Shown: piece after piece, positions 1-59,498 of the stretch
Layout: every line of letters begins with the position of its first letter
Numbering within the stretch: position 1 is the stretch's first letter
Notes under the pieces: generated by a model
Databases searched by the model: none
What the model was told of the DNA's origin: nothing
Seen by the model: only the letters and a program-made list of their open reading frames with translations
Assembly: GCA_045133795.1 (NCBI GenBank)
Contig: JBGUUT010000126.1
Span: 7,943-71,942, forward strand
Length of the DNA stretch: 64,000 nucleotides
Source: Spirochaetota bacterium
Lineage (GTDB): Bacteria > Spirochaetota > GWE2-31-10
Direction: 5' to 3'
Translations under genes and position numbers: made by a program

Positions 1-874
1 TTCCGCCACCGGGACCGATGTCTCCGATTTTCAAAGTCTTTTTTAATTCTTCCATAATAGGTGTATAAAGAGCATCAACTATATCTTTTGTATAAGTTGG
101 TAACAAATCAAAGATATCGTCTATAGAGCCAAACTGTTTTTTTGAGGACGAGAGTACAACCGCAGTCTTCAAGTCAATGACTGTAGAAGAAAGGTACATT
201 CTGCTTCCTAGCTTGATTATTTGTCCTCTTGCTACCATTGTTGCGTTTATGGCATTACCTAAAGCGACTGTCTTTTCTTTATTCGACCAGTCGGATGCTT
301 GAAATTTCATTTCTTTGATTGTCTTATCAAAGTTCGCTCTGTCTACTACATTTACTTTGCCGGTAGAAACAAGTTCTGCAATAAACAGTTCTGTTATTGC
401 ATCTGCTTCTTCACTGTTTACTGCCCCTGCTGTTATATCAAACGTCGAAACTGCGACATAGGGAAGTTGCATTTCTTGAGTTCCTTTAACTTGCGTAATA
501 CTTGTACTGACTGTTTTAGGATGTCTTAATACTCCGTCTTTAGTTCCGAATGAGTTAAATACAAATTCCGGCATTTCAGGATCTTCAAAATACAGACCAT
601 CATTAGGATTATAAAACTTATAATATTCTATTGGTTTTTCCATTACAAAACGATATTCCCATTCACCTTGTGCATTTCTTACCATCGGTTTGCCCGGTTC
701 TTCCCAGTCATTTGTCATTGTTCCGATACAGTTCACGGCTGACATCTTGTTATTTTTATATGTGATGATACACGTCCATTTGCTGTCTTTTTCCTCATAT
801 CTGACTTTTGCATTTACAGCCATTACGGAAAATAACAACATTGTAACTACTAATAATTTGATTAGTTTTCTCAT
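1..874 (-). CDS. Secreted protein, partial (the 3' end runs off the window start). The C-terminal half has a CsgG/LpoB/TolB-N-like periplasmic fold signature.
   Basis: ATG at 874..872 preceded by AAAGGAGA. My hand translation of the minus strand gives MRKLIKLLVVTMLLFSVMAVNAKVRYEEKDSKW..., a Sec signal peptide ending in an AVNA|K cleavage site, and the frame stays open to position 1. The segment VSTFDITAGAVNSEEADAITELFIAELVSTGKVNVVDRANFDKTIKEM..LGNAINATMVARGQIIKLGSRMYLSSTVIDLKT resembles CsgG/LpoB-type domains. It is absent from the ORF track because it is truncated. Confidence 0.45.
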   Translation of the reverse strand, partial: MRKLIKLLVVTMLLFSVMAVNAKVRYEEKDSKWTCIITYKNNKMSAVNCIGTMTNDWEEPGKPMVRNAQGEWEYRFVMEKPIEYYKFYNPNDGLYFEDPEMPEFVFNSFGTKDGVLRHPKTVSTSITQVKGTQEMQLPYVAVSTFDITAGAVNSEEADAITELFIAELVSTGKVNVVDRANFDKTIKEMKFQASDWSNKEKTVALGNAINATMVARGQIIKLGSRMYLSSTVIDLKTAVVLSSSKKQFGSIDDIFDLLPTYTKDIVDALYTPIMEELKKTLKIGDIGPGGG

Positions 875-901
875 TTATTTGTCTCCTTTATTTTTTGATT
901 A

Positions 902-1957
902 TTATATATGGTCTATAGTAAGAACTGTTTTCGATTTTGGACTTCCCCAAATTCTTTCAAATTGAGTTATAAATTGATTCGATATTTCAGGATTTAATTC
1001 AGAATTTATATAAAATACAAATGAATTCCTTGTTACTTCCGTGGCTGTATACAATGCGATATACAAAATGTTGTCACAGCGGATATAGGAAAAATACGGA
1101 ATATCATCATAGTATTTTAAACAGAGAGAAGCTTCTTGTCTGTTCATGGCGTTTTTAAATTCAAGATTATTTGAAAATGTATCTTTTAGTTCTTGATATT
1201 TCTTTTTTGTTTCTGTTGCTTTATCAAAGAAATCTTTTGTATCACCATTTCTGATATACGAAAATCTAGCTTTAACTAAATTTGATTCCGGTGATAACGC
1301 CATTATTCTGATTCTGGCACTTTGTGTATTAAGTAAGTTATTTTTAAAAATATCTAATGCTTCGGTAGATGTTTCACCTGTCATGCTTAAAATATCAATC
1401 TCTGTTGCTCTAGAAAATGCTGTTTTAATTATATCTTGGACTTTTGGGTCTATTCGTCTTCCGAGAAGATGAAGTCCCTTTTTATCTTCTCTGTTAAAAG
1501 CTATATTTTCACAATATTTATTATGTTCATATATTCTAAAAATATGCTCAACACTTTGCCGTATCTCATTTTTTGTTAATTCTATATCTTTTGAAATAGG
1601 ATTCATATTTGGATATGGATATGCAATAACATTCATTGCTCCTATATCAAAAGGAATCGAATCCTTAGAATTACCTGCTCTCAAAATAATACAAGGTTTA
1701 CCAGTCATGTGGCGGATTCCTAATTCATAAAAAACATTAGGATTTAAATCTGTAATGTCACATACAACTAAATCGGCTTCTTTAAGATTATGTACTATAT
1801 CAGTTGTAATGATATTTCGAGGAATATCAATTGGTAATAAAATATTGAAGTCATCTCCCAGAGCAGGAGTAAGTATATTATCTTGAACATATCTAGAACG
1901 TTTTCGTTCGGGCGAATCCGCTTCTTTCAATGTACAAATAAAAAACGCTGTTTTCAT
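902..1957 (-). CDS. Protein with an N-terminal nucleoside 2-deoxyribosyltransferase-like (SLOG/Rossmannoid) domain and an uncharacterised roughly 220-aa C-terminal domain
   Basis: 351-aa ORF with RBS AAAGGAG. The N-terminus MKTAFFICTL...EADLVVCDITDLNPNVFYELGIRHMTGKPCIIL matches the NDT/SLOG pattern (buried beta-strand start, D-x-x-D, NPNV-x-YELG with the Glu, GKP). The C-terminal region matches nothing I recognise. Confidence 0.55.
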   Translation of the reverse strand: MKTAFFICTLKEADSPERKRSRYVQDNILTPALGDDFNILLPIDIPRNIITTDIVHNLKEADLVVCDITDLNPNVFYELGIRHMTGKPCIILRAGNSKDSIPFDIGAMNVIAYPYPNMNPISKDIELTKNEIRQSVEHIFRIYEHNKYCENIAFNREDKKGLHLLGRRIDPKVQDIIKTAFSRATEIDILSMTGETSTEALDIFKNNLLNTQSARIRIMALSPESNLVKARFSYIRNGDTKDFFDKATETKKKYQELKDTFSNNLEFKNAMNRQEASLCLKYYDDIPYFSYIRCDNILYIALYTATEVTRNSFVFYINSELNPEISNQFITQFERIWGSPKSKTVLTIDHI

Positions 1958-2126
1958 TCTTATTTCTCCTTTATGTTTTGATTATTTTTACTTTCCATTC
2001 CGGAAAGTTTTTTTCTTTTGACCGGGAGTTCGACTTAGCTTTTTGCCGTTTTTTCCTGATGGGAAAAACTTCGTTCGTTCGCAATGCGAACTCACCTTAG
2101 CTCACGTTCGTCACTCCACGAGAACA

Positions 2127-2227
2127 CCTCTCATAACTGCATGAGAAATGCTCTCATAGCATTATGAGAATCTCTCTCATGCCGTTATGAGAACGTCTTC
2201 ACTCGTACTATGAGAGCCCCTCTCATG
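2127..2227. repeat. Tandem array of four imperfect 20-25 bp palindromic units (CTCTCATA-N5-7-TATGAGA). It may be operator-like and lies in the 5' region of the 902..1957 gene.
   Basis: Read directly: cctctcataactgcatgagaa, gctctcatagcattatgagaa, tctctcatgccgttatgagaa, then the inverted-orientation unit tatgagagcccctctcatgc. Additional dyads lie just upstream: GTTCGCA|TGCGAAC at about 2078-2092 and GTTTTTCC-tgat-GGAAAAAC at about 2049-2070. Confidence 0.6.
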
Positions 2228-2228
2228 C

Positions 2229-2963
2229 TTAATCATCGATTGCGTTACAAGCGTAGTTGTAAGTAATCTCACGTATCGAAGCGAGATTTGCTCCGCCGCT
2301 GTAGTTCGTTTTGATTTTCACGGTTACGGCTCCGGCAGGTACTGTCGACGGTACACGTGCGATTATTTGGCTCGGTTTGTTTACTGTCAGTCGGCGTGTT
2401 ACTCTGTGTTCTGCTCCCGTAGAGTCCACGATAAAGATTCCTTGATTTTGGTCGGCTTCATCGGTGATTTTGATTTTTTCGCCGTCGATTACGATGTCGT
2501 CGCCGATTGTGATTGTGCCGTCTTTGAGTCCTGTGGCACCGTCAGTAATCGCCGTGATTCGTGCAGAGGCTGATGTAGCTCCCATTACTTTCACAGATAT
2601 TCCGTCAAGTGTGCTTCGTAAATCTGCTGTCGGTACAAGGTCTACCGTGCGTTTGTGAGTAGCTGGGTCGAAGCTCGCTGCTTCATTTTCCCAAACTCCG
2701 CTTACTCTCGGCGTGATTTGCACTAAGCCGTCACGGAAACTTGAGCATTCTTGGATAAATGCTTTTACTGCATTGTCACGCAGGTTAAGAATATTGAGGA
2801 TTGTGTCCTTGCGGTATTCGCTTCGTTCGCTGACGATTCTTTCCGCTACGTCTTCGTTTGTCAATGTAGCACCGTTAAGGTGAACATCGGCGATACAGTC
2901 TTTGTCATTGTCTTTTGTGAGTGCGTTCGGTCGTAAGTAGACCTGCCATTGGTTGTTTGCCAT
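2229..2963 (-). CDS. Bacteroidetes-type HU-family DNA-binding protein (HU-HIG N-terminal domain plus DUF4469/Ig-like C-terminal domain)
   Basis: 244-aa ORF with RBS AAAGGAG. The N-terminus MANNQWQVYLRPNALTKDNDKDCIADVHLNGATLTNEDVAERIV follows the HU-HIG pattern (basic start, N-x-LT-x-D, Y/C-x-A-x-V) and FDPATHKRTVDLVPTADLR follows the DUF4469-like pattern. Local GC is clearly higher (about 48%) than the flanks (about 33%). Confidence 0.55.
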   Translation of the reverse strand: MANNQWQVYLRPNALTKDNDKDCIADVHLNGATLTNEDVAERIVSERSEYRKDTILNILNLRDNAVKAFIQECSSFRDGLVQITPRVSGVWENEAASFDPATHKRTVDLVPTADLRSTLDGISVKVMGATSASARITAITDGATGLKDGTITIGDDIVIDGEKIKITDEADQNQGIFIVDSTGAEHRVTRRLTVNKPSQIIARVPSTVPAGAVTVKIKTNYSGGANLASIREITYNYACNAIDD

Positions 2964-3031
2964 AGTAAATACTCCTTTGATTTCTTCTTTCCTTATGTGT
3001 AGTAAAGGCTGGAAGAAAGCAAAGAGAATGT

Positions 3032-3047
3032 AAAAAAAAAAAAAAAA
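3032..3047. repeat. A16 homopolymeric tract (T16 on the minus strand), 69-84 bp upstream of the 2229..2963 gene start
   Basis: 16 consecutive A residues counted in the sequence. Confidence 0.9.
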
Positions 3048-3226
3048 CTGTCAAATTTATTGATAATATATAGGAGTAAAAACATTTTTTTGGGCGTGCA
3101 GTTGGCTTCTTTTCTCCTCTTTGGCTGCCGGCACGCTCTTTTTAGGAAAACGGAAAGGTGAAAGAGGGAAGATGAGAAATGAGAATGAACTCACCGAGAG
3201 GAGCGTCCTTTTCTCTTGGGAGTTAT

Positions 3227-3268
3227 AGAGGGTATTCTCTTTTCATCGCAAAAAAGAGAATACCCTCT
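3227..3268. repeat. Perfect 17-bp-stem hairpin (AGAGGGTATTCTCTTTT / AAAAGAGAATACCCTCT), not followed by a T-run
   Basis: The inverted repeat is read directly and is not a canonical terminator on either strand. Confidence 0.7.
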
Positions 3269-3276
3269 AACTTCTA

Positions 3277-3470
3277 CCAACTTTGAACCAAAGTTGCATT
3301 TTAACGCCGGCTATGCCGGCAAAAAGAGCCTTAAACCTAAGTTGGTTTATAAAACTTTAAACCAAAGTTGCATTTTAACGCCGGCTATGCCGGCAAATAA
3401 AGCTCCAAACCTTGCAAAGTTTTAGAAAAGTTTTGTCCCCAAAACGACCATAACTCGCCGGCTATGCCGG
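3277..3470. repeat. Mosaic direct repeats (about 45-bp unit, present 2.5 times). Each unit carries an AT-rich hairpin (CAACTTTG..CAAAGTTG) and a GC hairpin (GCCGGC-TAT-GCCGGC).
   Basis: aaccaaagttgcattttaacgccggctatgccggcaaa occurs at about 3288 and again at about 3358. cgccggctatgccggcaaaag occurs a third time at about 3447, and the aactttaaacc modules are also repeated. Confidence 0.7.
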
Positions 3471-3518
3471 CAAAAGGAACTTTAAACCCACGTGGTTTGA
3501 AAAGCTTTGAAGAAAGCT

Positions 3519-3920
3519 TTAGTTTTGTTGTTCGCCGTTGTAGTCGTTGATTCCGCCGATTTCGATAATATTTGCATATTTTAAATCAATAAGTTTTTGT
3601 GCTGCAATTTTACTGCGGCGACCGCTTCTGCAATAAACAAAGATTTGTTGTTCTTTATTCGGTAAAATCGTTTCACATGTTCGCTCGCTAATATTATCGT
3701 GCGGAAATAAAACTGCACCCGGAATATGACCGGAAGCAAATTCATCTAAGCTGCGAACATCCAGCAAAATATAATCAGAAGATTCTGACATGATTTTTAA
3801 ACCTTCTTCCATCGAAACGGATTGATAAGTAAGATTTTTTTCAGCTTCTTTTTGATTAATACAGTTGAAAAGGAAAGGAACGCACATAAAAATAATCAAA
3901 TATTTAAAGTAATTTCTCAT
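3519..3920 (-). CDS. Rhodanese-like sulfurtransferase domain protein with a signal peptide
   Basis: Rhodanese active-site loop CRSGRRS, a GHIPGA motif and a hydrophobic N-terminus. Confidence 0.8.
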   Translation of the reverse strand: MRNYFKYLIIFMCVPFLFNCINQKEAEKNLTYQSVSMEEGLKIMSESSDYILLDVRSLDEFASGHIPGAVLFPHDNISERTCETILPNKEQQIFVYCRSGRRSKIAAQKLIDLKYANIIEIGGINDYNGEQQN

Positions 3921-4133
3921 GTTGCAAATGTATAGATGAGATTTTGTAATTTATCAATGATAATCACAACTTATTTTTTTCATGGTAAAAACTTTTTTCA
4001 AAAGTCGACAATTAAGAACTTTTTTTTCTTACCGATAAAAGGAAAAGGGAATTTACATTTTACGTAATTTAAATGTAGATGAGACACAGGAGAGCAATTT
4101 TCTTCTGATATTTTTTGCGGCAATGGGCGGGGT

Positions 4134-6932
4134 ATGTTTTTAAAGAATCTTACTATTAATGGCTTTAAATCGTTTTGTGAAGCATCGGAGATAAAATTTG
4201 ATAAAGGGATTTCGGCAATTGTCGGACCTAACGGTTGCGGTAAATCAAATATTGTAGATGCATTAAAGTGGGTTTTGGGAGAACAAAAAAATCGATCTTT
4301 GCGTGCAAACAATATGACGGATGTTATTTTTAAAGGTACTACCGAAAAAAAAGGTTTGGGACGTGCCGAAGTTCGTTTGACATTGGTAAATGAAAACGGG
4401 TTGTTGCCGTTGGATTTTAATGAAGTAGAAGTTGCTCGTATAATTTATGCAGACGGTGAAAATGAATATTACATCAATAAAGAAAAAGTTCGTTTGAAGG
4501 ATATTCATGAGCTTTTTTTTGATACCGGAGTTGGTAAGTCGGCGTATTCATTTATGGAACAGGGAAAAATCGATATGATTCTTTCCAATAAGCCGGAAGA
4601 CCGTCGTTATATTATCGAAGAAGCTGCCGGAATTACAAAATATAAATCACGAAAACATGAAGCAGAAAATAACCTTAATCGTGCGAATGAAAATATTGTT
4701 CGTGCTCAAGATATTTTTTCTGAGGTTTCCAAACAATACGAATCAATGAAAAAACAAGCTGATAAAGCTCAACGTTATATGGAACTTAAAGACGGCGTGC
4801 GAGATTTGGAAATCGAGCTTGGAATCAACAGACTTATGTTGCAAAAAAATATAAAAGACCGTTTTGCCGGCAAACAGTCAAAAGTCGACGATGAATTAGC
4901 GGCGATTCAGGAAGAAATAGACAGCTTGCAATCTGACGTTTCGGAAAAAATGATTGCGGTTAATAATTTGGAACAGGAAAAAATAGACAGACATCGTGAG
5001 ATAGAAAGAACTGACGGAGAAATCAAAGCTTTGAATGTAAAAAATGCTGCTTTACGTGATAAAGAGGCGACAATTTCCAGTTCATTACGTACCGATGAAG
5101 AAAAGCTCGGTCGATTGGATAAAACGATTGCCGATACTGATGAAGAACTGGCGGCTGTTGATGATGAACGTTTTGATACAGTTTCAAAAATCAGCAGTAT
5201 TGAAAAGGATATTTCTCGTCATAACGAAATGATTTCGCAAATTGACATAGATTTGAAAAAAAATGATGAGCAAATCAAATCATTACACGGTTTGATAAAA
5301 GATTTAGCTGCGGAACAGGCAAGTAAACGAGGTCATTTAAAGGAAATTACAGACGCTTTGATTGTAAAGATTGAAGAGTCGCTAAATGTTTTTGATATGA
5401 ATTCTCGTGAAATTATGACGCTAAAGGAAAGTGTCGGCCATGATATTCCGAGAGTACGTGAAGAATTCAGAACTCGTCGTCAATTTTTGGAAGATGTTTT
5501 GAAGATTAGAAATATTCCGTCAGACAGCAGTGCGTTTTTTCAGCAGTTGGAAGATTTCGGAAAACATTTGCAAGATTTGGAAGAAAAACTCGGACACGCC
5601 GGCGAAAATGTAAATAAGTATGTGAAAGCGACTGAAATCTTTATGAATGATATTTTCAGCCCGGAAGGTATTATCCAGAGAAAACGTAAGACAGAACAGG
5701 AAATCGCAGAGTACGATAAACGTATGCATAATTACAGAATTGAAATTGAGAATTTGGAACGAAATTCTGAAACTAAAGAAGAGCAAAAGGAAAATTACAG
5801 AAAGCTTGTGGAAGAAGCAAAAGTAATTTATTCGTCGTTATTGGAAAAACAAAAATCTTTTGACCGTGAAATACAGCGTATTACAAAGATTAAAAATGAA
5901 TATATTGCACAGAAATCGGAAATTGAACGAACAATAAAATCTCGTAACGAAGAGCTTGAAGAAGTTCAATATGAAATTGACGAACTTGACGGTTTGTTGA
6001 GAACCGAACGCAACAAGAAAAAGAAGATAGAAGAACGTATTGAAGAATTGGACAATTTGATTCAATCGGAAAGTGAAAAGATGTCTCAACAGCAGTTGAG
6101 AATGCGTAATATAAACGAGTCTTTCTTAAAAAAGAAAGCGGAAATCGAAGAATTGAAGCTCAAACTTGCGGAAGTAGATACGACAATTAGCGAGATTTAT
6201 CGAAATGCGTACGACAATCTTTCCATTAACTTAAAGGAATATGAGAATTCCGAAAAATATAACACCGGGCGAGAAGCTTCCGTTATCCGAGAAACTCTTT
6301 CCGGAATAAAAAATGACATGATGTCATTGGGGCAAGTAAATATGGCGGCAATGCAGGAATGCGAATCGTTGAAAGAACGTTATGATTTACTTATGTCACA
6401 ATTAGAAGATTTGCAAAAAGGTAAAGATGATTTGCTTACTATAATAAATGAGCTTAACGGAAAGTCTCAAGAGATGTTTGAAAAAACTTATGTGGAAATC
6501 AGAAAGAATTTTCAGATGATTTTCTCTAAGTTATTTAACGGCGGAAAGGCTGATATTTTACTTACGGAACCGGAAAATCTTCTTGAAACCGGTATTGATG
6601 TAGAAGTGCAGCCGCCGGGACAGACTCGAAAAAGTATTACGCTTCTTTCCGGAGGACAGCGAACAATGACGGCAATTGCGTTGATGTTTGCTACTTTTAT
6701 GGTAAAACCGTCGCCGTTTTGTTTGCTGGATGAAATTGACGCAGCGTTGGACGAAGCTAATGTTACTCGTTTTATAGAGTTGGTTCAGGATTTTAAAGAC
6801 CAAAGCCAGTTTGTAATGATTACGCATAATAAAAAAACTATGTCTGCCGCAAATGTAATGTACGGTGTAACTCAAGAAACTATGGGGGTATCGAAAATTG
6901 TTTCTGCAAAATTTATTGAAAAAATTCTCTGA
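4134..6932 (+). CDS. smc: Chromosome segregation protein SMC (short form, 932 aa)
   Basis: The N-terminus FKSF...GPNGCGKSNIVDALKWVLGEQ and the C-terminus LSGGQRTMTAIAL...LLDEIDAALD are SMC head motifs, joined by a long coiled-coil middle. Confidence 0.9.
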   Translation: MFLKNLTINGFKSFCEASEIKFDKGISAIVGPNGCGKSNIVDALKWVLGEQKNRSLRANNMTDVIFKGTTEKKGLGRAEVRLTLVNENGLLPLDFNEVEVARIIYADGENEYYINKEKVRLKDIHELFFDTGVGKSAYSFMEQGKIDMILSNKPEDRRYIIEEAAGITKYKSRKHEAENNLNRANENIVRAQDIFSEVSKQYESMKKQADKAQRYMELKDGVRDLEIELGINRLMLQKNIKDRFAGKQSKVDDELAAIQEEIDSLQSDVSEKMIAVNNLEQEKIDRHREIERTDGEIKALNVKNAALRDKEATISSSLRTDEEKLGRLDKTIADTDEELAAVDDERFDTVSKISSIEKDISRHNEMISQIDIDLKKNDEQIKSLHGLIKDLAAEQASKRGHLKEITDALIVKIEESLNVFDMNSREIMTLKESVGHDIPRVREEFRTRRQFLEDVLKIRNIPSDSSAFFQQLEDFGKHLQDLEEKLGHAGENVNKYVKATEIFMNDIFSPEGIIQRKRKTEQEIAEYDKRMHNYRIEIENLERNSETKEEQKENYRKLVEEAKVIYSSLLEKQKSFDREIQRITKIKNEYIAQKSEIERTIKSRNEELEEVQYEIDELDGLLRTERNKKKKIEERIEELDNLIQSESEKMSQQQLRMRNINESFLKKKAEIEELKLKLAEVDTTISEIYRNAYDNLSINLKEYENSEKYNTGREASVIRETLSGIKNDMMSLGQVNMAAMQECESLKERYDLLMSQLEDLQKGKDDLLTIINELNGKSQEMFEKTYVEIRKNFQMIFSKLFNGGKADILLTEPENLLETGIDVEVQPPGQTRKSITLLSGGQRTMTAIALMFATFMVKPSPFCLLDEIDAALDEANVTRFIELVQDFKDQSQFVMITHNKKTMSAANVMYGVTQETMGVSKIVSAKFIEKIL

Positions 6933-10674: not shown

Positions 10675-11829
10675 ATGGAACCATTGGGCTTATATTTAAA
10701 ACAGGTCAGAGAAGGGAAAAAGCTGACTATCGATAAAGTAATTGAAGATACTTTCATTATGAAAAAATTTATTATTGCAATAGAAGACGATGATTTTTCT
10801 TCTTTTCCGGGAGAAGCTTATCTAAAAGGTTTCTTGCGAAATTACGGAGAATATTTAGGGCTTGATCCGTCTGATTTAATTTCACGTTATGAAAGAATAA
10901 AAATGTCAGAAATGCCGTCACCTACAGAGCTTTTGATTCCTAAACCAAAAGCATTTTTCTCAAAAATGTTGCTGATTGTTTTAATTGTAATGCTTTTGGT
11001 TGCTGTAGTTGTCGGTATTGGTGCTATTGCCGTGGCTATGCGTTCGACAGTTGCAAATACAGCCGTAAAGACAAAAGAAGAAGTTAAAACAGAAAAAGAA
11101 AAGGCTCGTTCTGAAAAGAAAAAGAATCTTTTGGTAAAGGAAAAAAAGAAAGCTCAGGTAGAAACAACTGAAGACAGTAAGTCTAAAGTTTTTACATTTG
11201 AAGCTGAAGCTGATAATTTTACAGTTAAAAAAGATGAGAAAATAAGCTTTAAATTGGATGATGAAAAAACATATTCTATTTGGGTGTCAGAATTAGAGCC
11301 GACTGTTATATTGAAAAGTTCGGCAGACAGACAGCAATTTCTTATAGCGAACGGTTTTACAAATAAGTTTGATGTAAACGGCGACGGAAAAGAAGATTTG
11401 GAAATTGTGTTAAGTTTCTGGACAGATAAAAATGCTACTATCGGTTTAAAAAGAATTGCTAATTCTCTTTGGAGTGACAGCAGTATTGACAGTGAATTCT
11501 TTTTACCGGATACAATCGAGGTTATCGGTGAAAAAGCAAGCAAGTCAGAAATTTCACTAATGATTTCATTTTCTGAAATGGCATATTTGAAATATCAAAT
11601 AGATAAAAATCCGGAAGTAGAAAAGACTTATAAGGTTGGTGCTGTTTTAGAATTAAAGGCAAATGAACGTGTTCTTTTGTGGATGTCGGATGCCGGAGCC
11701 GTAAATGCTGATTTTTCAGAGTATAACAAACGAGTTGTTCTCGGAGAAAAAGGTAAAGTTGACGTGAAGATTATCGGTTGGACTAAAAACAATGGTAATT
11801 ACTCATTACAAATGAGTTCATTGAATTAA
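10675..11829 (+). CDS. RodZ-like protein (N-terminal XRE-type HTH, one TM helix, C-terminal DUF4115-like domain)
   Basis: LYLKQVREGKKLTIDKVIEDTFIMKKFIIAIEDDDFSSFPGEAYLKGFLRNYGEYLGLD matches the RodZ N-terminus, followed by a TM helix and a Lys/Glu-rich linker. Confidence 0.55.
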   Translation: MEPLGLYLKQVREGKKLTIDKVIEDTFIMKKFIIAIEDDDFSSFPGEAYLKGFLRNYGEYLGLDPSDLISRYERIKMSEMPSPTELLIPKPKAFFSKMLLIVLIVMLLVAVVVGIGAIAVAMRSTVANTAVKTKEEVKTEKEKARSEKKKNLLVKEKKKAQVETTEDSKSKVFTFEAEADNFTVKKDEKISFKLDDEKTYSIWVSELEPTVILKSSADRQQFLIANGFTNKFDVNGDGKEDLEIVLSFWTDKNATIGLKRIANSLWSDSSIDSEFFLPDTIEVIGEKASKSEISLMISFSEMAYLKYQIDKNPEVEKTYKVGAVLELKANERVLLWMSDAGAVNADFSEYNKRVVLGEKGKVDVKIIGWTKNNGNYSLQMSSLN

Positions 11830-53725: not shown

Positions 53726-53890
53726 TTAGTTTTTCTCGTCTGAAGTTTGTAATACGTAATATTTAAAAACATTTAGTAAATTTTCTTGTAAGACCCCTTG
53801 TTCTGTTTATTTTGGCTTGAATGAAATAGAGGAACATTATATAGTTAAAAATATTTGATAAATTTTCTTGCTACTTGGGAGGTGGAGAGA

Positions 53891-56800
53891 ATGAGAAGGG
53901 CTTTTGTTCGAACCGGAAATATTTTTGGGTATGTAAGTTTATTTCTGATGTTTATATTTTTCGGTTGTACACAGGAATGTATGAATGGTGATAAGCCTGA
54001 AAAAAAAGTCGAAAAAAATAAACATTCTACGACTTTACAGGATGTGGTAAATAATGCAGCTGCCGGTGAAGAAATTGATTTAGCGGAATATGAAAGCATT
54101 ACAGACTACAATGCCGTAATAAGTAAGCAACTTGTTATTAAAAACGGAAGCTTGAGTAATGCAAAATTAGTTATAGATTCCGAAAATGTCAAACTTGATA
54201 AAGTAAAAGGTGTTTCCGTAACAACATTGTCAGCTTCTTCTTTAACTATAACTGACAGTAGTATTAATGAGTTACTGTTTATCGGGAAAAACTATTCAGA
54301 CAACAGCACTTCAAGAAGTTCTAAATCATATTCTTTTATGAAAGAAAGCAGCGTGACGATGAACGGAATATCAACCGTTAATTGCGTTACTATGAATTTC
54401 AGTAAAGCGAAATTAAAAATATCGGACGGTTCTTCTGCCGAAACTGTAGCAATTTTAGATGATGCGGCAATTTCCGGAAAAATTGAAGAATTAGTAATTA
54501 AAGAATTAAATACTGCGGTGACTTTAGAAAAAGCAAATATTACAAATGTTGTAATGGACGGTTTTAATTCTCAACTTGCGGTATTGGATACAGAGACTGT
54601 ATTAGAAAATGTATCTATAAATACGGAATGTAAAATCTTGTGTAATGCGGTTATGTCGGATGAAATGGAAAAGGCGTTTACTTCAGACGGTGTATTGACT
54701 GTTGTGGATATGACGGAAAAACCGCAATTGGAACGTTTGTTAATATTAAGTATGCCTACAAATATTTTCAGCGACAACGGTGAAATAGATTTTACCGGAT
54801 TGAAAGTTTGCGGTGTATATGAAAATGTTACGTCAAAAGTTTATACGGGTGTCGGCGAAGAAGAAAACAAAGAAGCTTTTATGAAATTGGAAACCGATTA
54901 TAAAATAGAAGTGATTTCGGAAGAAGACGGTATTATAAAAGTTCGTATAAGCAAAGACGGAAAAGAATGTATTTTTGAAATGCTTGATTCCGAGAAAATT
55001 GCAAAGTATACGGTAAAACATTGTCAGGAAAATGCAGAAAATGAGAATTACGAAATTATTGTAACTGCAGATACAGAAACAAAAACCGGAAAAGTTGGCG
55101 AACTTACAAATGCAGAGGCAAAAACTTATGAAGGTTATACTGTTGAGCCTATAGAGCAAGTTGAAATAACGGCAGACGGAAATGCTACAGTATATATTAA
55201 ATACAAGAGAAACAGAGTTACATTGACGTTGAAATTTGACGACGGAACAACAACTACAGATAAAAAAATAAATGGAAAATATGGAGTAACGGTACCGACA
55301 GTAGAGACTCCGACTAGAAATGGATATAATTTTGCCGGTTGGAATCCGCAGTTACCGGAGACTTTCCCTGCCGAAAGTACGACATATACGGCTAAGTGGG
55401 CAAAAGAGGGAGATTATATTATCACGTACGAGCTTAACGAAGGAACAAATGCCGACAGTAATCCGCCAAGTTATAATGAAGAAACATTGCCTATAACATT
55501 AGCCGATGCAACCAGAGAAGACTATATATTCGGCGGCTGGTACAAAGATAAAGATTGTACAGAAGAAAACAAAGTGACCAAGATCCCTAATGGTTCAACC
55601 GGAAATATTACGCTTTACGCAAAATGGATTGCACGAACTTTAGAGCAGACGTTTGAGGCTGGCTATTCAAATCAAAACAATGCTAATGCAAACGGTGTTT
55701 CATATAATACGGACAAAGGTTATGGTGTTGTAACGGTAAAAGCTCCGGATTCTACCGAATCAGTTTGGGATTATTATGTAAGGTCAAAGGATGTGACTTT
55801 TACGTATAAAAAAAATTATACGGTTTCGGTAGATTTAAAAGCAGACAAAGCGAGCGTTGTTGCGATTGCAGCGGCAAGAGCGGATATGTTTTTTACAGTC
55901 GGAACAGAATGGACAACTTGTACTTTTGAAACCGGCTATTTGGAAACAGACCTTTCGAATAAAGAACAAAATTGTATAACAATCGGTTCCGGATTGGTTG
56001 GAACGCTTTCTATATCAAATCTGGTTATTACAAAAACAGAGGAAAATGACAACTTGCCGACATTAAGTTTCTTTATTGAAAAAGCCGGTATTAATACTTA
56101 TTTGAATTCAGATTTTGCAACGAAAAATATTATCGAAGTTGAGAAAGCAAAAGATGCTGAGACTGAAACTAAAATACTCGGATATAAGCTTACACTTAAT
56201 TCTACCGGTGTGTCTTTACAATTGAGAGATTATGCTCCTGTTTCAGGAAATAAATTAAACAGGGCGATTTTTAATCTTAAAACAGACAATGAGATCTTGA
56301 ATTCTGCCGTGGTGGCTTCGGTGGCTTCTTCAAGCGGTTATGTAAATTGTTGGAATAAGGCGTCCGTTATAGGAACTTCCGGAAAAGATTGCGAGGTATG
56401 TTTCCCTTCATATTCAGAAGAGACTTCCGGCGTGGAAGAGTGTGCGGTAGAGGGGATTATTAGCAAAGATGCGAACAATGGAATCACAGAACAGGTCGGA
56501 AATACGATAACTATTACGAACTTTTCAATTACTAATGTCACTGATTTGGCAAATTCTGGCAAAACTTTTGCAATAAAGAAAACAGAAAACAACTCAGATA
56601 TTTGGAGTAAATCGAGCTCAGTGCCTTTTTACGTAGACGTAACTATTCCTGCTAATAATCACACTGTTTTTGATGTACTTTTAGGAAATAAAGTTGAAGA
56701 GGGTAAATCTTTCAACTGGGATGATGTTACTCGATTCTTGTACCAAAAGACTTCCGGGGAACTTATCGATAATTCGAATGTAGTTAAATATGTGATTGAC

Positions 56801-57385
56801 AAAGGTAGTAGTGGTAATCCGACATATAAATTGGTTAATACATCGACAGAGAGCGATGTTACTTGTATAATTACACTTACAAAAGACCTAAAGGTTGAAA
56901 TCTCAGAAGGATTAGTTATTAATCTTGATGATGAAACTAATAACCTTAAACAGACTATTAGAGAGTACATAAATGAAGTTGCTGGTGATGTAAACGAAAA
57001 GACAATAAGAATAACTGGTGTAGATGGCAATAACTATATAAATGATATATCTGAAGGTTTGGGGAAAGGTTCTTCTGATGCTCGTATAAATCTAGATTTA
57101 AGCGGAGTGACGGGATTGAGTGAGATTCCGGAATATGCTTTTGAAGATTGCGATAACTTGGTAAGCATTACAATTCCTGCCGGTGTAAATATAATCGGAG
57201 CAAATGCTTTTAGTGATTGTACTTCGTTAGAAGAAGTTTACTTTATGGAGACTGGTGTTATGTGGGATTTGATGGATACTGAAATTACAGTTGTGGGAAC
57301 TATCACAGTTAGTACTGATGCCAAGGAAAATGCAAGAAACCTACTAGCAAACTCTTCTTATGATTGGGGTAAATCAGATTATTAA
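53891..57385 (+). CDS. Large surface lipoprotein with Listeria-Bacteroides (Flg_new) repeats and C-terminal BspA-type leucine-rich repeats
   Basis: RBS GGAGG and a lipobox (FFGC). The Flg_new-type repeats include NGYNFAGWNP...YTAKWA and EDYIFGGWYKDKDC...LYAKWIA. The BspA-like LRR is IPEYAFEDCDNLVSITIPAGVNIIGANAFSDCTSLEEVYF. Confidence 0.7.
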   Translation: MRRAFVRTGNIFGYVSLFLMFIFFGCTQECMNGDKPEKKVEKNKHSTTLQDVVNNAAAGEEIDLAEYESITDYNAVISKQLVIKNGSLSNAKLVIDSENVKLDKVKGVSVTTLSASSLTITDSSINELLFIGKNYSDNSTSRSSKSYSFMKESSVTMNGISTVNCVTMNFSKAKLKISDGSSAETVAILDDAAISGKIEELVIKELNTAVTLEKANITNVVMDGFNSQLAVLDTETVLENVSINTECKILCNAVMSDEMEKAFTSDGVLTVVDMTEKPQLERLLILSMPTNIFSDNGEIDFTGLKVCGVYENVTSKVYTGVGEEENKEAFMKLETDYKIEVISEEDGIIKVRISKDGKECIFEMLDSEKIAKYTVKHCQENAENENYEIIVTADTETKTGKVGELTNAEAKTYEGYTVEPIEQVEITADGNATVYIKYKRNRVTLTLKFDDGTTTTDKKINGKYGVTVPTVETPTRNGYNFAGWNPQLPETFPAESTTYTAKWAKEGDYIITYELNEGTNADSNPPSYNEETLPITLADATREDYIFGGWYKDKDCTEENKVTKIPNGSTGNITLYAKWIARTLEQTFEAGYSNQNNANANGVSYNTDKGYGVVTVKAPDSTESVWDYYVRSKDVTFTYKKNYTVSVDLKADKASVVAIAAARADMFFTVGTEWTTCTFETGYLETDLSNKEQNCITIGSGLVGTLSISNLVITKTEENDNLPTLSFFIEKAGINTYLNSDFATKNIIEVEKAKDAETETKILGYKLTLNSTGVSLQLRDYAPVSGNKLNRAIFNLKTDNEILNSAVVASVASSSGYVNCWNKASVIGTSGKDCEVCFPSYSEETSGVEECAVEGIISKDANNGITEQVGNTITITNFSITNVTDLANSGKTFAIKKTENNSDIWSKSSSVPFYVDVTIPANNHTVFDVLLGNKVEEGKSFNWDDVTRFLYQKTSGELIDNSNVVKYVIDKGSSGNPTYKLVNTSTESDVTCIITLTKDLKVEISEGLVINLDDETNNLKQTIREYINEVAGDVNEKTIRITGVDGNNYINDISEGLGKGSSDARINLDLSGVTGLSEIPEYAFEDCDNLVSITIPAGVNIIGANAFSDCTSLEEVYFMETGVMWDLMDTEITVVGTITVSTDAKENARNLLANSSYDWGKSDY

Positions 57386-57407: not shown

Positions 57408-57456
57408 TAAAAAAGCATACCGTAAAGTTTTTCGCTTTTAGGTATGCTTTTTTTGT
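57408..57456. terminator. Rho-independent terminator. It is copy 1 of a duplicated terminator and is bidirectional in form.
   Basis: Stem AAAAGCATACC/GGTATGCTTTT followed by a T-run. A near-identical copy lies at 57716-57759. Confidence 0.65.
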
Positions 57457-57465
57457 TGCAGTTAA

Positions 57466-57573
57466 TTATTTATTTAGCTCGGCGTAAAGTTCAGCTTTAG
57501 CTTTTATTACAGTGTCGATTAATGTGTCCGGTGCAACGATTGTTTTCTCATTGTTGGGAAAAACTTCGCTCAT
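57466..57573 (-). pseudogene. Duplicated fragment of the proS 3' end (last roughly 30 codons), with a fortuitous ATG
   Basis: The stretch at about 57471-57560 is roughly 85% identical to 57771-57863. Its translation MSEVFPNNEKTIVAPDTLIDTVIKAKAELYAELNK compares with the ProS C-terminus ...NNEKTIVALDALIDTVVKAKAELYAELNK. Confidence 0.55.
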
Positions 57574-57595
57574 GTATTACGTACATTCGCCACAG

Positions 57596-57712
57596 CCGGA
57601 ACGATGTTATTCCATTAAGCTCGAACGATGTGTTTTAGCTAGCCGGAACGATGTGTTTCATTAAGCTGGAACGATGTGTTTCATTAAGCTGGAACGATGT
57701 GTTCACGTTGCG
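57596..57712. repeat. Tandem repeat of about 23 bp x 5 (consensus GGAACGATGTGTTTCATTAAGCT), contiguous with no spacers
   Basis: Copies read at 57596, 57622, 57644, 57668 and 57691. The last copy is degenerate. Confidence 0.75.
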
Positions 57713-57715
57713 AAT

Positions 57716-57759
57716 AAAAAAGCATACCGTAAGTTTCTCGCTTTTAGGTATGCTTTTTT
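57716..57759 (-). terminator. Rho-independent terminator of proS (copy 2)
   Basis: Same stem as at 57411-57451, with a T-run on the minus strand. Confidence 0.7.
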
Positions 57760-57770
57760 GTGTAGTTTAA

Positions 57771-59498
57771 TTATTTGTTTAACTCAGCGTAAAGTTCGGC
57801 TTTGGCTTTTACTACAGTGTCGATTAAAGCGTCCAAGGCAACGATTGTTTTCTCATTGTTGCCAATAGTCACTTCTGCACCGCCGTTTTGCAATGATTTT
57901 TCGCCTAATGCAATTTTTATAGGAGAACCGATAAGGTCTGCGTCTTTAAATTTAAATCCCGGAGATGCGTTTCTGTCATCATAAAGAACTTCTATTCCGG
58001 CAGCTTTCAATTTTGCATAAATGTCTTCACAGATTTCTTTTACGTTGTTTTGGTTGTCTTTGTGCAATCCTATCAACTCTACTTCAAACGGAGCGATAGA
58101 AATAGGCCATAAGATTTTGTCTTCATCGGCACGAACTTCCAAAACACTTGCAAGAAGACGACCGACACCGATTCCGTAACATCCCATAATCATCGGAACT
58201 TCTTTTCCTTCTTTATTTAGGTACATACATTTCATAGATTGTGTGTATTTTGTACCGAGTTTAAAAATATTTCCGATTTCGATACCACGTTTTACTGTCA
58301 AAGGTTTACCGCAACATGGACAAGCTTCACCTTCGTTTACACTGGAAATATCCAAAACTTCGTCAGTATTCCAGTCTCTTCCAAAATTTGTGTTTTTTGT
58401 GTGTACATCAATTTTGTTTCCGCCGGCAATCAGATTGCTAGAGTTGGCTGCAGACTCATCTGCTATGATTCGAACTTTTTTACCGTTGAAAGTCTGTCCT
58501 ACAGGTGAGGCAAAACCTTTTACTATACCGGCAGCTTCAAGTTCTTCGTCAGTTGCAAGGAAAATTGTTTTTGCTTTCAAGTAATTGCGTAGTTTTGTTT
58601 CGTTTATTTCCAAATCTCCGCGAATTGCACAGAATGCCAATTCTTCTCCGGTAGAATAAACAACGGCTTTTAAAGTGTGGTCGGCTGTAGTTCCCAAGAA
58701 TGTTGCAACTTCATCGATAGTTTTTTGGTTCGGTGTAGCGACATCTTCCATCGACAACATTTCTTCTTTCAAATAATCACGTTTTGCTTTTGCAACTTCT
58801 TTGTTTGCACGGTAGTCGCATGATGAACAAATTACGAGTGTATCTTCACCGGCTTCTGTTACAGCCATAAATTCATCAGCTCCGGAACCTCCCATCATTC
58901 CGGTATCGGAAGAAACTGCAAGGGCGTTGATTCCGCAACGTTTGAAAATTTTATGATATGCATCGTACATTTCTTGATAATATTTTTCTAAATCTTCGTA
59001 AGATTCATGGTAAGAGTAAGCGTCTTTCATTACGAATTCACGTACTCGGATTAAACCGCCTCGAACTCTCGGTTCATCACGGAATTTAGTTTGTAATTGG
59101 TAAACTTTCATCGGTAATTGCTTGTAAGATGTCACGGCATAACGAATTAAATCGGTAACGATTTCTTCGTGTGTCATGCTCAAAACCATTTTTCTGCCGC
59201 TTCTGTCATCAAAGCGAAGTAATTCTTCTCCGACCCTTTCGTAGCGACCGGACTCTGCCCAAAGTGAAGCCGGTACTGCTACAGGCATATTGATTTCTTG
59301 ACAGCCGGTAGCGTCCATTTCTTCACGAATTATATTTTCTATTTTCTTTAAAGCTCGCCAAGCGATAGGTAAGTAAGTAAATATACCGGCTCCGACTTGT
59401 TTTACATAGCCGCCGCGTAATAATAATTTGTGACTTTTTAAATCTGCGTCTTTTGGTGTTTCTTTTGTTGTTTTTAATAAATATCCGGAAAGTTTCAT
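57771..59498 (-). CDS. proS: Proline--tRNA ligase (bacterial type with an editing INS domain)
   Basis: Class II motifs, the length (575 aa), and an N-terminus typical of ProS (MKLS.YLLKTTKE). Confidence 0.9.
   Translation of the reverse strand: MKLSGYLLKTTKETPKDADLKSHKLLLRGGYVKQVGAGIFTYLPIAWRALKKIENIIREEMDATGCQEINMPVAVPASLWAESGRYERVGEELLRFDDRSGRKMVLSMTHEEIVTDLIRYAVTSYKQLPMKVYQLQTKFRDEPRVRGGLIRVREFVMKDAYSYHESYEDLEKYYQEMYDAYHKIFKRCGINALAVSSDTGMMGGSGADEFMAVTEAGEDTLVICSSCDYRANKEVAKAKRDYLKEEMLSMEDVATPNQKTIDEVATFLGTTADHTLKAVVYSTGEELAFCAIRGDLEINETKLRNYLKAKTIFLATDEELEAAGIVKGFASPVGQTFNGKKVRIIADESAANSSNLIAGGNKIDVHTKNTNFGRDWNTDEVLDISSVNEGEACPCCGKPLTVKRGIEIGNIFKLGTKYTQSMKCMYLNKEGKEVPMIMGCYGIGVGRLLASVLEVRADEDKILWPISIAPFEVELIGLHKDNQNNVKEICEDIYAKLKAAGIEVLYDDRNASPGFKFKDADLIGSPIKIALGEKSLQNGGAEVTIGNNEKTIVALDALIDTVVKAKAELYAELNK

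Follow-up and report, generated by a model that had tools for sequence, protein, structure and literature searches.

Within a 64,000-nt stretch of contig JBGUUT010000126.1 of a Spirochaetota bacterium (hereafter the window), positions 875-3520 hold two minus-strand genes, one encoding a 244-aa HU-like protein of the HU-HIG clade and the other a 351-aa protein, set in repeat-rich non-coding DNA near smc. We read this segment as a three-layer mosaic in a treponeme-like spirochaete of the ruminant gut, placed at a variable locus rich in surface proteins, an interpretation that, taken with the mechanism proposed below, we regard as fairly probable. The three layers, namely the HU-HIG gene unit, a 1.16-kb cassette and a group of hairpin modules resembling repetitive extragenic palindromes (REPs), are independent of each other. 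As an islet the segment is ordinary; the core of its interest is a conserved, apparently undescribed cis-element on an enigmatic gene family, together with a candidate phase-variable promoter.

The segment is not a single islet, because its HU-like unit (~2113-3058) differs in history from the 351-aa cassette (862-2025) and the two fall into distinct homologous blocks. Window positions 2120-3058 are 89-90% identical to three comparison loci (L002-L004) with a differing gene context, and this block runs from the -35 hexamer of the HU-HIG promoter to the end of the array that follows the gene. Positions 862-2025 share 97.9% nucleotide identity over 1,167 bp with L085/L086, where the flanks have no nucleotide similarity to the window: upstream lies a paralogue of the HU-HIG gene with 25% amino-acid identity and a GGTAAC array, and downstream a gene for a 210-aa Lcl_C protein. 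This pattern clearly points to a recent exchange of 862-2025. The features of the three layers and of their neighbours are collected in Table 1.

Table 1. Position, strand and basis of the features found between positions 2 and 3920 of the window
Feature	Position	Strand	Basis
HU-HIG gene unit (layer 1): promoter, coding sequence, 3' array	3054 to ~2113	-	separate homologous block
HU-HIG gene, Ig subclade (HU-DNA_bdg + DUF4469), 244 aa, no signal peptide	2229..2963	-	Pfam, PDB 4FMR
Tandem palindrome array, ~4.7 units, ATGAGAG-n3-YTCTCAT-n6, 23-nt period	~2113..2228	-	Tandem Repeats Finder (TRF), self-match
Sigma-70-type promoter of HU-HIG gene: -35 TTGACA (3054-3049), 16-nt spacer, -10 TACATT (3032-3027)	3027..3054	-	promoter scan
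5' leader of HU-HIG mRNA	2964..3026	-	conserved in 7 loci
Exchanged cassette (layer 2), 1.16 kb: junction hairpin, leader, 351-aa gene, second leader copy to ATG of next gene	862..2025	-	L085/L086
351-aa gene: N-terminal DNPH1/NDT/MilB-like, TIR-related domain and C-terminal PLD-fold domain without HKD	902..1957	-	AlphaFold2 model, profiles, motif
Direct repeat of leader and ribosome-binding site (RBS), copy 1 (AATAATCAAAAAATAAAGGAGACAAATAAATG), downstream edge of cassette	868..903	-	repeat D7, 83% identical to 1951-1986
Direct repeat of leader and RBS, copy 2, upstream of 351-aa gene	1951..1986	-	repeat D7
Junction hairpin A7-CTTTCC-GGAAT-GGAAAG-TAAAAATAA, upstream edge of cassette	1982..2014	-	+ strand terminator-like site 1990-2008
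5' part of secreted lipoprotein-type gene (CsgG/TolB_N/LpoB-like, then Lcl_C/DUF1566), runs past left window edge	2..874	-	Pfam CsgG 1.2e-4, TolB_N, LpoB
REP-like hairpin modules (layer 3), also likened to bacterial interspersed mosaic elements (BIMEs)	3196-3520	.	repeats
Perfect 18-bp inverted repeat, 8-nt loop	3226..3269	.	inverted repeat I10
Three tandem REP/BIME-like modules, 74-77 nt, each with several short hairpins including GCCGGC-TAT-GCCGGC	3279..3489	.	repeats
Rhodanese gene, PspE-like, single-domain, lipoprotein-type signal (...LFNC)	3519..3920	-	Pfam Rhodanese 1.9e-15; NCBIfam PspE-like below cut-off

The HU-HIG gene and its 23-nt palindrome array

The 244-aa open reading frame (ORF) matched HU-DNA_bdg (PF14848; 6.8e-26, 91.2 bits against a cut-off of 30) and DUF4469 (PF14734; 4e-24, 84.9 bits against a cut-off of 22.6), and its product aligned over its full length (residues 3-226) with PDB 4FMR (3.5e-11). 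This places it in the Ig-fused subclade of the HU-HIG clade, described as massively expanded in Bacteroidetes and as occasionally passed to spirochaetes (Burroughs et al. 2017; PMC5499826). Genes of the clade are without conserved operonic partners and a role in biological conflicts has been proposed for them; in 4FMR the Ig domain occludes the HU clasp, and the authors think canonical DNA binding unlikely (PMC5499826).

A database search with the window protein returned 276 homologous clusters, mostly from Treponema. Paralogues occur within single genomes (at least two and at least three in two Treponema genomes, and six in one Parabacteroides distasonis strain), and one copy lies within the 64-kb window. 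The architecture, which the initial annotation had called Bacteroidetes-type, is that of a large multi-copy family native to treponemes and not only to Bacteroidetes (PMC5499826). The window gene and its relatives resemble the published clade in their two-domain architecture, full-length similarity to 4FMR, multi-copy and fast-diverging nature, lack of a conserved protein-coding operon partner and occurrence in Bacteroidota and spirochaetes. They differ from it in that PMC5499826 reports no non-coding partner, whereas here a palindrome array with a 23-nt period is conserved 3' of the gene; in addition, one treponeme subfamily adds a poly-T-spaced promoter, and treponeme copies are mostly found ahead of genes for lipoproteins or surface proteins. 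When non-Ig HU-HIG controls were sought by tblastn with just the HU domain, the query alone was recovered.

The gene is a strong compositional outlier. Its GC content of 47.6% and its GC content at third codon positions (GC3) of 46.1% (z = +5.5 and +4.9) compare with 34.8 ± 2.3% and 26.7 ± 4.0%, respectively, in the 40 other ORFs of 150 aa or more, and among the 64 bins of the window 2001-3000 is the richest in GC. In the adjoining 351-aa gene, by contrast, GC3 falls to 0.185 (z = -2.1), the lowest value of the window. The GC jump had been read as a hallmark of inserted DNA. The jump itself is real, but all the HU-DUF4469 genes examined have 45-48% GC in surroundings of 34-37%, including a paralogue that is only 25% identical; it is a family trait and therefore gives no evidence on recent insertion here. 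Expression-linked codon bias was rejected as its cause, since groEL in the same kind of genome has a GC3 of 0.215. GC-biased gene conversion in a recombining multigene family could possibly explain it.

The palindrome array begins 2 nt past the stop codon of the window gene, and its folding z-score is -7.9. To assess such arrays across the family we took the best self-match lag of the 3' flank as the measure in 31 non-redundant loci (23 spirochaete and 8 Bacteroidota). The best lag was exactly 23 in 28 of the 31; it was 24 in one and 46 by TRF in another, and an array was absent from the remaining one. Among 189 control windows the best lag was 22-24 in 22, which is about chance, and none reached 0.6 identity. 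The arms are locus-specific (ATGAGAG, ATGTGAG, TATCTAA, GTATCG, TAGATA, TTGAAG, GGTAAC, TCCCTA and others) and 5-9 nt long, with two spacers filling the unit to 23. All six paralogues of the P. distasonis strain carry an array, with different arms in each. Gene and array stay together in L002-L004 and L095. The gene that adjoins the L125 array is convergent, which assigns the array to the HU-HIG gene rather than to any promoter downstream. Searches of Rfam 15 gave only sub-threshold microRNA-like matches for the window palindromes and no matches in 14 family loci, and the array is undescribed in the literature searched (searches including DUF4469, PF14848 and PF14734). The 23-nt array is thus a conserved and apparently undescribed cis-element on the HU-HIG family in two phyla.

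We propose that the array would act as a strand-symmetric cis element of fixed geometry, with half-sites alternating in orientation about every 11.5 bp, that it would be recognised by shape and not by sequence, most plausibly by the adjacent HU-HIG protein, and that it would gate or insulate transcription between the HU-HIG gene and variable cargo. Shape-based recognition, probably by the HU-HIG protein, is our preferred reading, although we hold it tentatively. Sequence-specific recognition by the HU domain was rejected, since an identical HU domain occurs with ATGAGAG, ATGTGAG and TATCTAA arms. Group-specific residues are confined to the last ~22 aa of the HU-HIG protein, and L095 is a recombinant in which the C-terminal end and the array arrived together.

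Alternatively, the array may work as RNA, in the form of a hairpin chain in the 3' untranslated or intercistronic part of the HU-HIG mRNA that would shield it from 3' exonucleases and attenuate read-through with no specific protein partner, much as intercistronic REP elements stabilise upstream mRNA in enteric operons. We consider this, the main rival, possible but on the whole doubtful. The arrays start 3-71 nt past the stop codon in almost all loci, usually between co-directional genes without a strong terminator; all but one fold far beyond shuffled sequences (z from -2.4 to -8.8); the arm sequence is free to drift while pairing is retained; and the occluded clasp of 4FMR speaks against DNA binding (PMC5499826). 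However, hairpin stability needs no strict 23-nt period across two phyla. A sense-strand RNA signature was rejected, because neither folding energy (the sense strand gives the more stable structure in 11 of 29 arrays) nor G-U counts (86 versus 107 pairs) differ between strands in the manner expected, there being no G-U excess and no better folding of the sense strand. In Fulvitalea, moreover, a canonical intrinsic terminator parts the HU-HIG gene from the array. Strand-neutral folding, the strict period and the Fulvitalea terminator lean towards a strand-symmetric DNA-level element of fixed geometry.

Among known systems, the centromere-like and operator arrays (F plasmid sopC/sopB, parC/ParR and the omega heptads) are similar in having tandem inverted-repeat units beside a gene with a nucleic-acid-binding fold and a repeat sequence that varies between paralogous systems. 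The units here are, however, far shorter (23 bp) and present in many chromosomal copies, and the presumed DNA-binding domain does not co-vary with them; no ATPase gene of a ParA-type partition cassette adjoins any of the 31 loci. The intercistronic REP stabilisers of enterobacteria, like REPs and BIMEs in general, are short intergenic palindromic units, and the 3' array occupies the position of such a stabiliser; unlike REPs, which have a single genome-wide consensus, it is specific to one gene family, strict in period and locus-specific in sequence. In its widest form, our proposal is that an HU-HIG gene and its own 23-bp-period array make up an undescribed two-part module, present in many copies per genome in Bacteroidota and Spirochaetota, read by its geometry (as a cruciform-prone duplex or hairpin chain) and serving as a switchable insulator or gate before surface-protein, fimbrial and other variable cargo, to which some treponemes would have added the poly-T promoter. 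This wider proposal is speculative, and we rate it unlikely rather than likely.

A phage or plasmid origin was rejected. The HU-HIG protein had one weak match in 50,697 phage records and three matches in large, non-mobilizable, plasmid-labelled Bacteroidota records (Parabacteroides and Fulvitalea), and neither it nor the 351-aa protein is present in IMG/VR contigs.

Some further observations concern the family and its arrays in other settings. P. distasonis (L115; NZ_OY725834.1, 150565-156272) has a fimbrial cluster of the order DUF4906, HU-HIG and two fimbrillin genes, in which the HU-HIG gene carries a 23-nt array, and the Parabacteroides paralogue L123 adjoins a site-specific integrase. The Parabacteroides HU-HIG genes, like those of treponemes, tend to precede surface-structure genes. 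Many family contigs are ~1 kb long and stop close to, or within, the arrays or the T tract, and L002 has a scaffold N run inside its 23-nt array (10856-10960). Since such elements break short-read assemblies, copy numbers and contexts of the HU-HIG family are probably under-reported. In the window itself, a second tandem array with a 23-nt period (57594-57703; 4.7 copies of GGAACGATGTGTTTCATTAAGCT) is non-palindromic and lies between a gene for a Flg_new/LRR_5 BspA-type surface protein (53855-57385, plus strand) and proS (57771-59498, minus strand). It is flanked by a duplicated segment of terminator and gene end (~57410-57495 and ~57718-57800), and the match in period may be a coincidence or a remnant.

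The T-tract promoter and the leader

The promoter of the HU-HIG gene scores 10/12 and reads TTGACA-G-T16-ACATTC on the gene strand. Its spacer consists of the G and the first 15 T of the T16 run (3047-3032), the last T of which begins the -10 box; the A16 of the initial annotation (3032-3047) is this promoter spacer. The palindromes, the A16 and the hairpins were all found where that annotation had placed them, and all lie far outside chance expectation. It had counted them among the marks of inserted DNA; the array and the A16, however, look like functional parts of the HU-like unit and not like debris.

The same promoter precedes all close relatives (88-97% amino-acid identity), and its T tract, as assembled from short reads, differs in length between loci and samples: 16 in the window, L005, L113, L121 and L122, 17 in L094 and L119, 19 in L120, 13 in L002, 12 in L003 and at least 17 in L004. 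L002, L003 and L004 represent one locus in three samples (13, 12 and at least 17), and L119 and L120 one locus in two samples (17 and 19); a third locus gave 16 in all three cases. Judged from its sequence, the promoter has the anatomy of a slipped-strand phase-variable promoter. Slippage in the T run would shift the spacing between permissive (16-18) and non-permissive (12-13) lengths and would make the HU-HIG gene phase-variable. The genes downstream of it would then switch by read-through, since the minus strand at 1958-2228 contains no promoter-like site of their own.

Phase variation through a poly-A promoter spacer is a feature of the vlp genes of Mycoplasma hyorhinis. In Treponema pallidum, poly-G tracts between the -35 and -10 boxes control transcription (PMC7864442). 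The window promoter resembles those of T. pallidum tp0126 and the tpr genes (PMC7864442) in that a homopolymer fills a sigma-70-type spacer, its length appears to vary between samples of one locus and, at the commonest length, the boxes are 16-17 nt apart. It differs in that the tract is poly-T of 12-19 nt and not poly-G, and would drive a cytoplasmic HU-like gene first, with surface proteins reached by presumed read-through only.

In T. denticola, the HU-HIG gene TDE_2259 and the adjacent lrrA fall together in one mutant (-5.18 and -5.69 log2; PMC12724145), which supports co-expression of an HU-HIG gene with a downstream surface-protein gene. Table 1 of that study lists the drop of TDE_2259 and TDE_2258 (lrrA, BspA), ~36- to 50-fold together, for a trtA deletion clone (PMC12724145). 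One may speculate that the drop was a phase switch in the clone rather than regulation by TrtA.

In the leader of the HU-HIG mRNA, a 5' CUCUUU can pair with the Shine-Dalgarno sequence AAGGAG as a possible anti-Shine-Dalgarno, with an inner UUCC/GGAA stem. The 7 loci retain this pairing, with one covarying pair; at -3.6 kcal/mol their consensus structure is weakly stable. Six HU-HIG paralogues on metagenome contigs (L097, L099, L101, L106, L109 and L112; 59-65% identity) are without the poly-T promoter and share a long GC-rich leader hairpin, GGGGGAGGGAAACAACC...GCTCTGAAC...GGTTTGTCCCTCCCCC, ~100 nt upstream of their start codons, which has no Rfam match.

The exchanged cassette and the 351-aa protein

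The two copies of the leader and RBS repeat (868-903/1951-1986) are the sole real junction repeat of the segment, and they bracket the 351-aa gene alone. The motif AATCAAAAnATAAAGGAG occurs in the 64 kb only in these two copies; the possibility that the AATAATCAAAA...AAGGAG leader is the general RBS context of the genome was rejected on its 2 occurrences in 64 kb. Direct repeats at the supposed junctions around 875-900 and 3480-3520, which had been suggested as marks of an inserted element, could not be found: the best local alignment scored 9, against a mean of 8.5 and a maximum of 13 for shuffled sequences. The junction hairpin at the other edge of the cassette has no second copy in the window. 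Three unrelated contexts contain it, and in each it stands between an HU-HIG array and the gene that comes next downstream; on the plus strand it reads as an intrinsic terminator. Recombination at the junction hairpin and leader, which the loci share, would be the simplest and most likely route by which the cassette was swapped in. An integron cassette was rejected, since there is no attC GTTRRRY core, the edges are an RBS leader and a hairpin with a 6-bp stem, and no integrase is encoded in 2-3920.

The Logan contig L001 matches window 1-2792 at 100% identity; it lengthens the lipoprotein ORF at the left window edge to at least 392 aa and adds an Lcl_C match (7.9e-8; 33 bits, against a cut-off of 34.9). 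In other treponemes, homologues of the 351-aa protein at 45% identity have genes for CsgG-like lipoproteins directly downstream of them. The gene for the CsgG/TolB_N-Lcl_C lipoprotein is thus a conserved partner of the 351-aa gene, and the two probably work together. The earlier suggestion that the left boundary lies beyond position 1 was right in spirit, because the gene it had treated as a flanking secreted-protein gene belongs with the 351-aa gene.

Some of these neighbours touch on diversity-generating retroelements (DGRs), of which Lcl_C/DUF1566 is a common target fold. In L095 (650-3717) the slot that the window gives to the 351-aa gene is taken by a DGR (bAvd 1.5e-22, template repeat, reverse transcriptase 4.6e-20); the gene before it is an HU-HIG gene, 92% identical and followed by the same ATGAGAG array, and the gene after it encodes a CsgG/TolB_N-like lipoprotein. 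In L086 (2092-2724) a stretch of 25 nt that encodes part of the C-terminus of the 210-aa Lcl_C protein is 96% identical to the L095 template repeat. The Lcl_C neighbours (window 2-874, L001 1919-3094, and L086) may be DGR-diversified surface proteins. No reverse transcriptase gene was found in the window by tblastn.

The AlphaFold2 model of the 351-aa protein (mean pLDDT 82) has two domains, at residues ~1-146 and ~160-351. In this model the N-terminal domain adopts the flavodoxin-like NDT fold. It contains an invariant NPNVFYELG, with N72, N74, Y77 and E78 invariant in 50 homologues, and in a profile alignment its YELG falls onto the YELG of Rcl/DNPH1. The Glu of this motif is catalytic in Rcl. 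The N-terminal domain thus seems to keep the catalytic Glu of an N-glycosidase-type enzyme. Its score for Pfam NDT (PF05014) is below the gathering score (14.3 against 28.8 bits), and PADLOC gave a match to a TIR effector profile at 8e-7. The SLOG (SMF/DprA-LOG) label initially given to the domain was dropped, since neither profiles nor structure link it to LOG or DprA-type domains; it is NDT/DNPH1/TIR-like. The C-terminal domain has the PLD fold. Its sequence holds no HxK(x)4D motif, as the sole HxK of the protein, at residue 145 in the linker, has no following Asp and the domain has only H163 and H350; it is catalytically dead and probably ligand-binding. The N-terminal domain family is large (12,299 representatives at E up to 1e-3) and has many different C-terminal fusions, among which the full architecture is rare. 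We suggest that the 351-aa protein would act as a ligand-controlled N-glycosidase. It differs from DNPH1/Rcl, the NDTs, MilB and bacterial TIR effectors in its sub-threshold NDT score, its fusion to an HKD-less PLD-fold domain and its lack of known defence partners.

Another interpretation, which we judge unlikely, is that the 351-aa gene, alone or together with the lipoprotein gene, forms an effector module against phage or in some other conflict and that the locus is a small defence hotspot seeded behind HU-HIG genes. The retained catalytic Glu in a DNPH1/NDT/TIR-like domain, the PADLOC profile match, the very large N-terminal family with its many C-terminal fusions, the recent exchange of the cassette, the DGR in the same slot in L095, the FRG, PDDEXK_2 and ATPase_2 genes near homologues and the proposed role of HU-HIG proteins in biological conflicts (PMC5499826) would all fit such an effector. 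However, the PADLOC match is at the domain level only, no known system architecture or partner (cyclase, sensor, SIR2 and so on) accompanies the gene, viral contigs hold no copies, and a periplasmic or surface lipoprotein is an unusual partner for a cytoplasmic nucleotide-directed effector. Partner genes of Thoeris, CBASS or Pycsar were not found, the neighbours being the HU-HIG and lipoprotein genes, with the same or unrelated genes in four other contexts.

Gene order upstream of smc and the history of the segment

The smc gene (4134-6932) lies on the strand opposite to the two focal ORFs. The non-coding gaps of 271 bp between these ORFs and 555 bp before the rhodanese gene add up to 826 bp, in agreement with the ~830 bp first reported. 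The SMC protein is 94%, 92%, 89% and 87% identical to those of four metagenome-assembled genomes named Spirochaetales or Spirochaetota bacterium, one of them from water-deer caecum, and close homologues of both focal proteins carry the name Treponema sp. Exact-sequence look-ups with the HU-like and rhodanese proteins gave no match.

L006, L011 and L007 become homologous to the window only from 4010-4103 onwards, a short way upstream of smc, and other genes precede smc. L008 shares the rhodanese gene, and its contig breaks inside the hairpin modules. The comparison with relatives that had been called for thus gave a divided answer: the arrangement upstream of smc is absent from three species, and one shares the rhodanese gene and the hairpin modules. 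Since the rhodanese gene adjoins smc in one of the four related species only, the supposed rhodanese-smc housekeeping block does not stand. The rhodanese gene is a right-hand neighbour outside the mosaic.

The hairpin modules form the third layer. The sequence GCCGGCTATGCCGGC is present in each module (3 matches in the window, 0 expected), and relatives of the modules lie upstream of HU-HIG promoters in L002, L003 and L094. L005, which is rich in surface-protein genes, gave 18 high-scoring segment pairs to them. They behave as dispersed repeats of the REP/BIME type concentrated in variable loci, and they are dispersed and mosaic as BIMEs are; no RAYT transposase was seen. The window contains no further copies of the modules, the HU-HIG gene or the 351-aa gene. 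ARAGORN found no tRNA or tmRNA genes in the 64 kb, and a Pfam scan of the four ORFs at 2-3920 found no integrase, transposase or recombinase domain, the remaining window being unscanned for these; within this scope the initial report of no such genes was borne out. The evidence points to an area upstream of smc that varies between species by piecemeal turnover and not by a single insertion.

Several considerations weigh against the mosaic reading and its mechanism. The transcription start, the read-through and the transcription of the array are steps that we infer. The tract lengths come from short-read metagenome assemblies, in which long homopolymers are error-prone, and they differ in only two same-locus sets. 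The HU domain is invariant across differing arms, and the co-variation of the last ~22 residues with the array may be mere linkage; the occlusion of the 4FMR clasp by the Ig domain also makes binding of the array by the HU-HIG protein doubtful (PMC5499826). A role at the RNA level is possible, the symmetry test being blind to purely Watson-Crick hairpins. The L085/L086 contigs could belong to the window's own genome or to a different species, and what we call an exchange may accordingly be a duplication or a transfer. The presence or absence of the layers was judged from other species only.

Even so, it is very improbable that 875-3520 is one islet acquired as a unit, for instance from Bacteroidota, and wedged between conserved genes, as the initial annotation had it. 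The strong GC outlier, the unconserved gene order upstream of smc and the view that the HU-HIG clade entered spirochaetes by transfer from Bacteroidetes (PMC5499826) are in its favour. Against it, the components have independent homologous blocks with different identities and partners, the GC excess is limited to the HU-HIG gene and shared by its family, HU-HIG genes are abundant and diverse within Treponema, and the gene taken as the left flank is a conserved partner of the 351-aa gene; integrase (2-3920 ORFs), tRNA (window) and junction repeat were not found. The segment resembles genomic islands and integrated mobile elements in its site at a gene-order break and perhaps in its atypical composition; it is unlike them in having no tRNA target, flanking repeats or (in 2-3920) integrase, and in the independent histories of its components. 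What remains of the case for accessory DNA is the gene-order break and the recent exchange of 862-2025, not a single inserted islet. An ancestral and stable locus, in which likeness to other loci would be ordinary paralogy and the repeats neutral slippage, is less credible still: L008 (SMC 89%) has the rhodanese gene and then the same hairpin modules until its contig ends, which suggests a shared right part, but 862-2025 is 97.9% identical beside unrelated flanks, the whole arrangement upstream of smc is missing from three related species, and a 23-nt period kept across phyla cannot be neutral.

For annotation, these results warn against taking a GC jump as a recent insertion where it coincides with an HU-DUF4469 gene. 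HU-HIG genes are among the largest unexplained gene expansions in gut Bacteroidota and are also present in oral, gut and rumen treponemes. The sole comparative study that we found reported no conserved gene partners and could do no more than guess at a role in conflicts (PMC5499826), and a non-coding partner of strict geometry makes the function of the family testable. If the poly-T promoter is phase-variable, commensal treponemes would possess an on/off switch of the T. pallidum kind, which would precede loci for BspA-like, Flg_new, DGR-diversified and CsgG-like surface proteins. If the module of protein and array is true, the enigmatic HU-HIG expansion would gain a concrete cis partner and a function.

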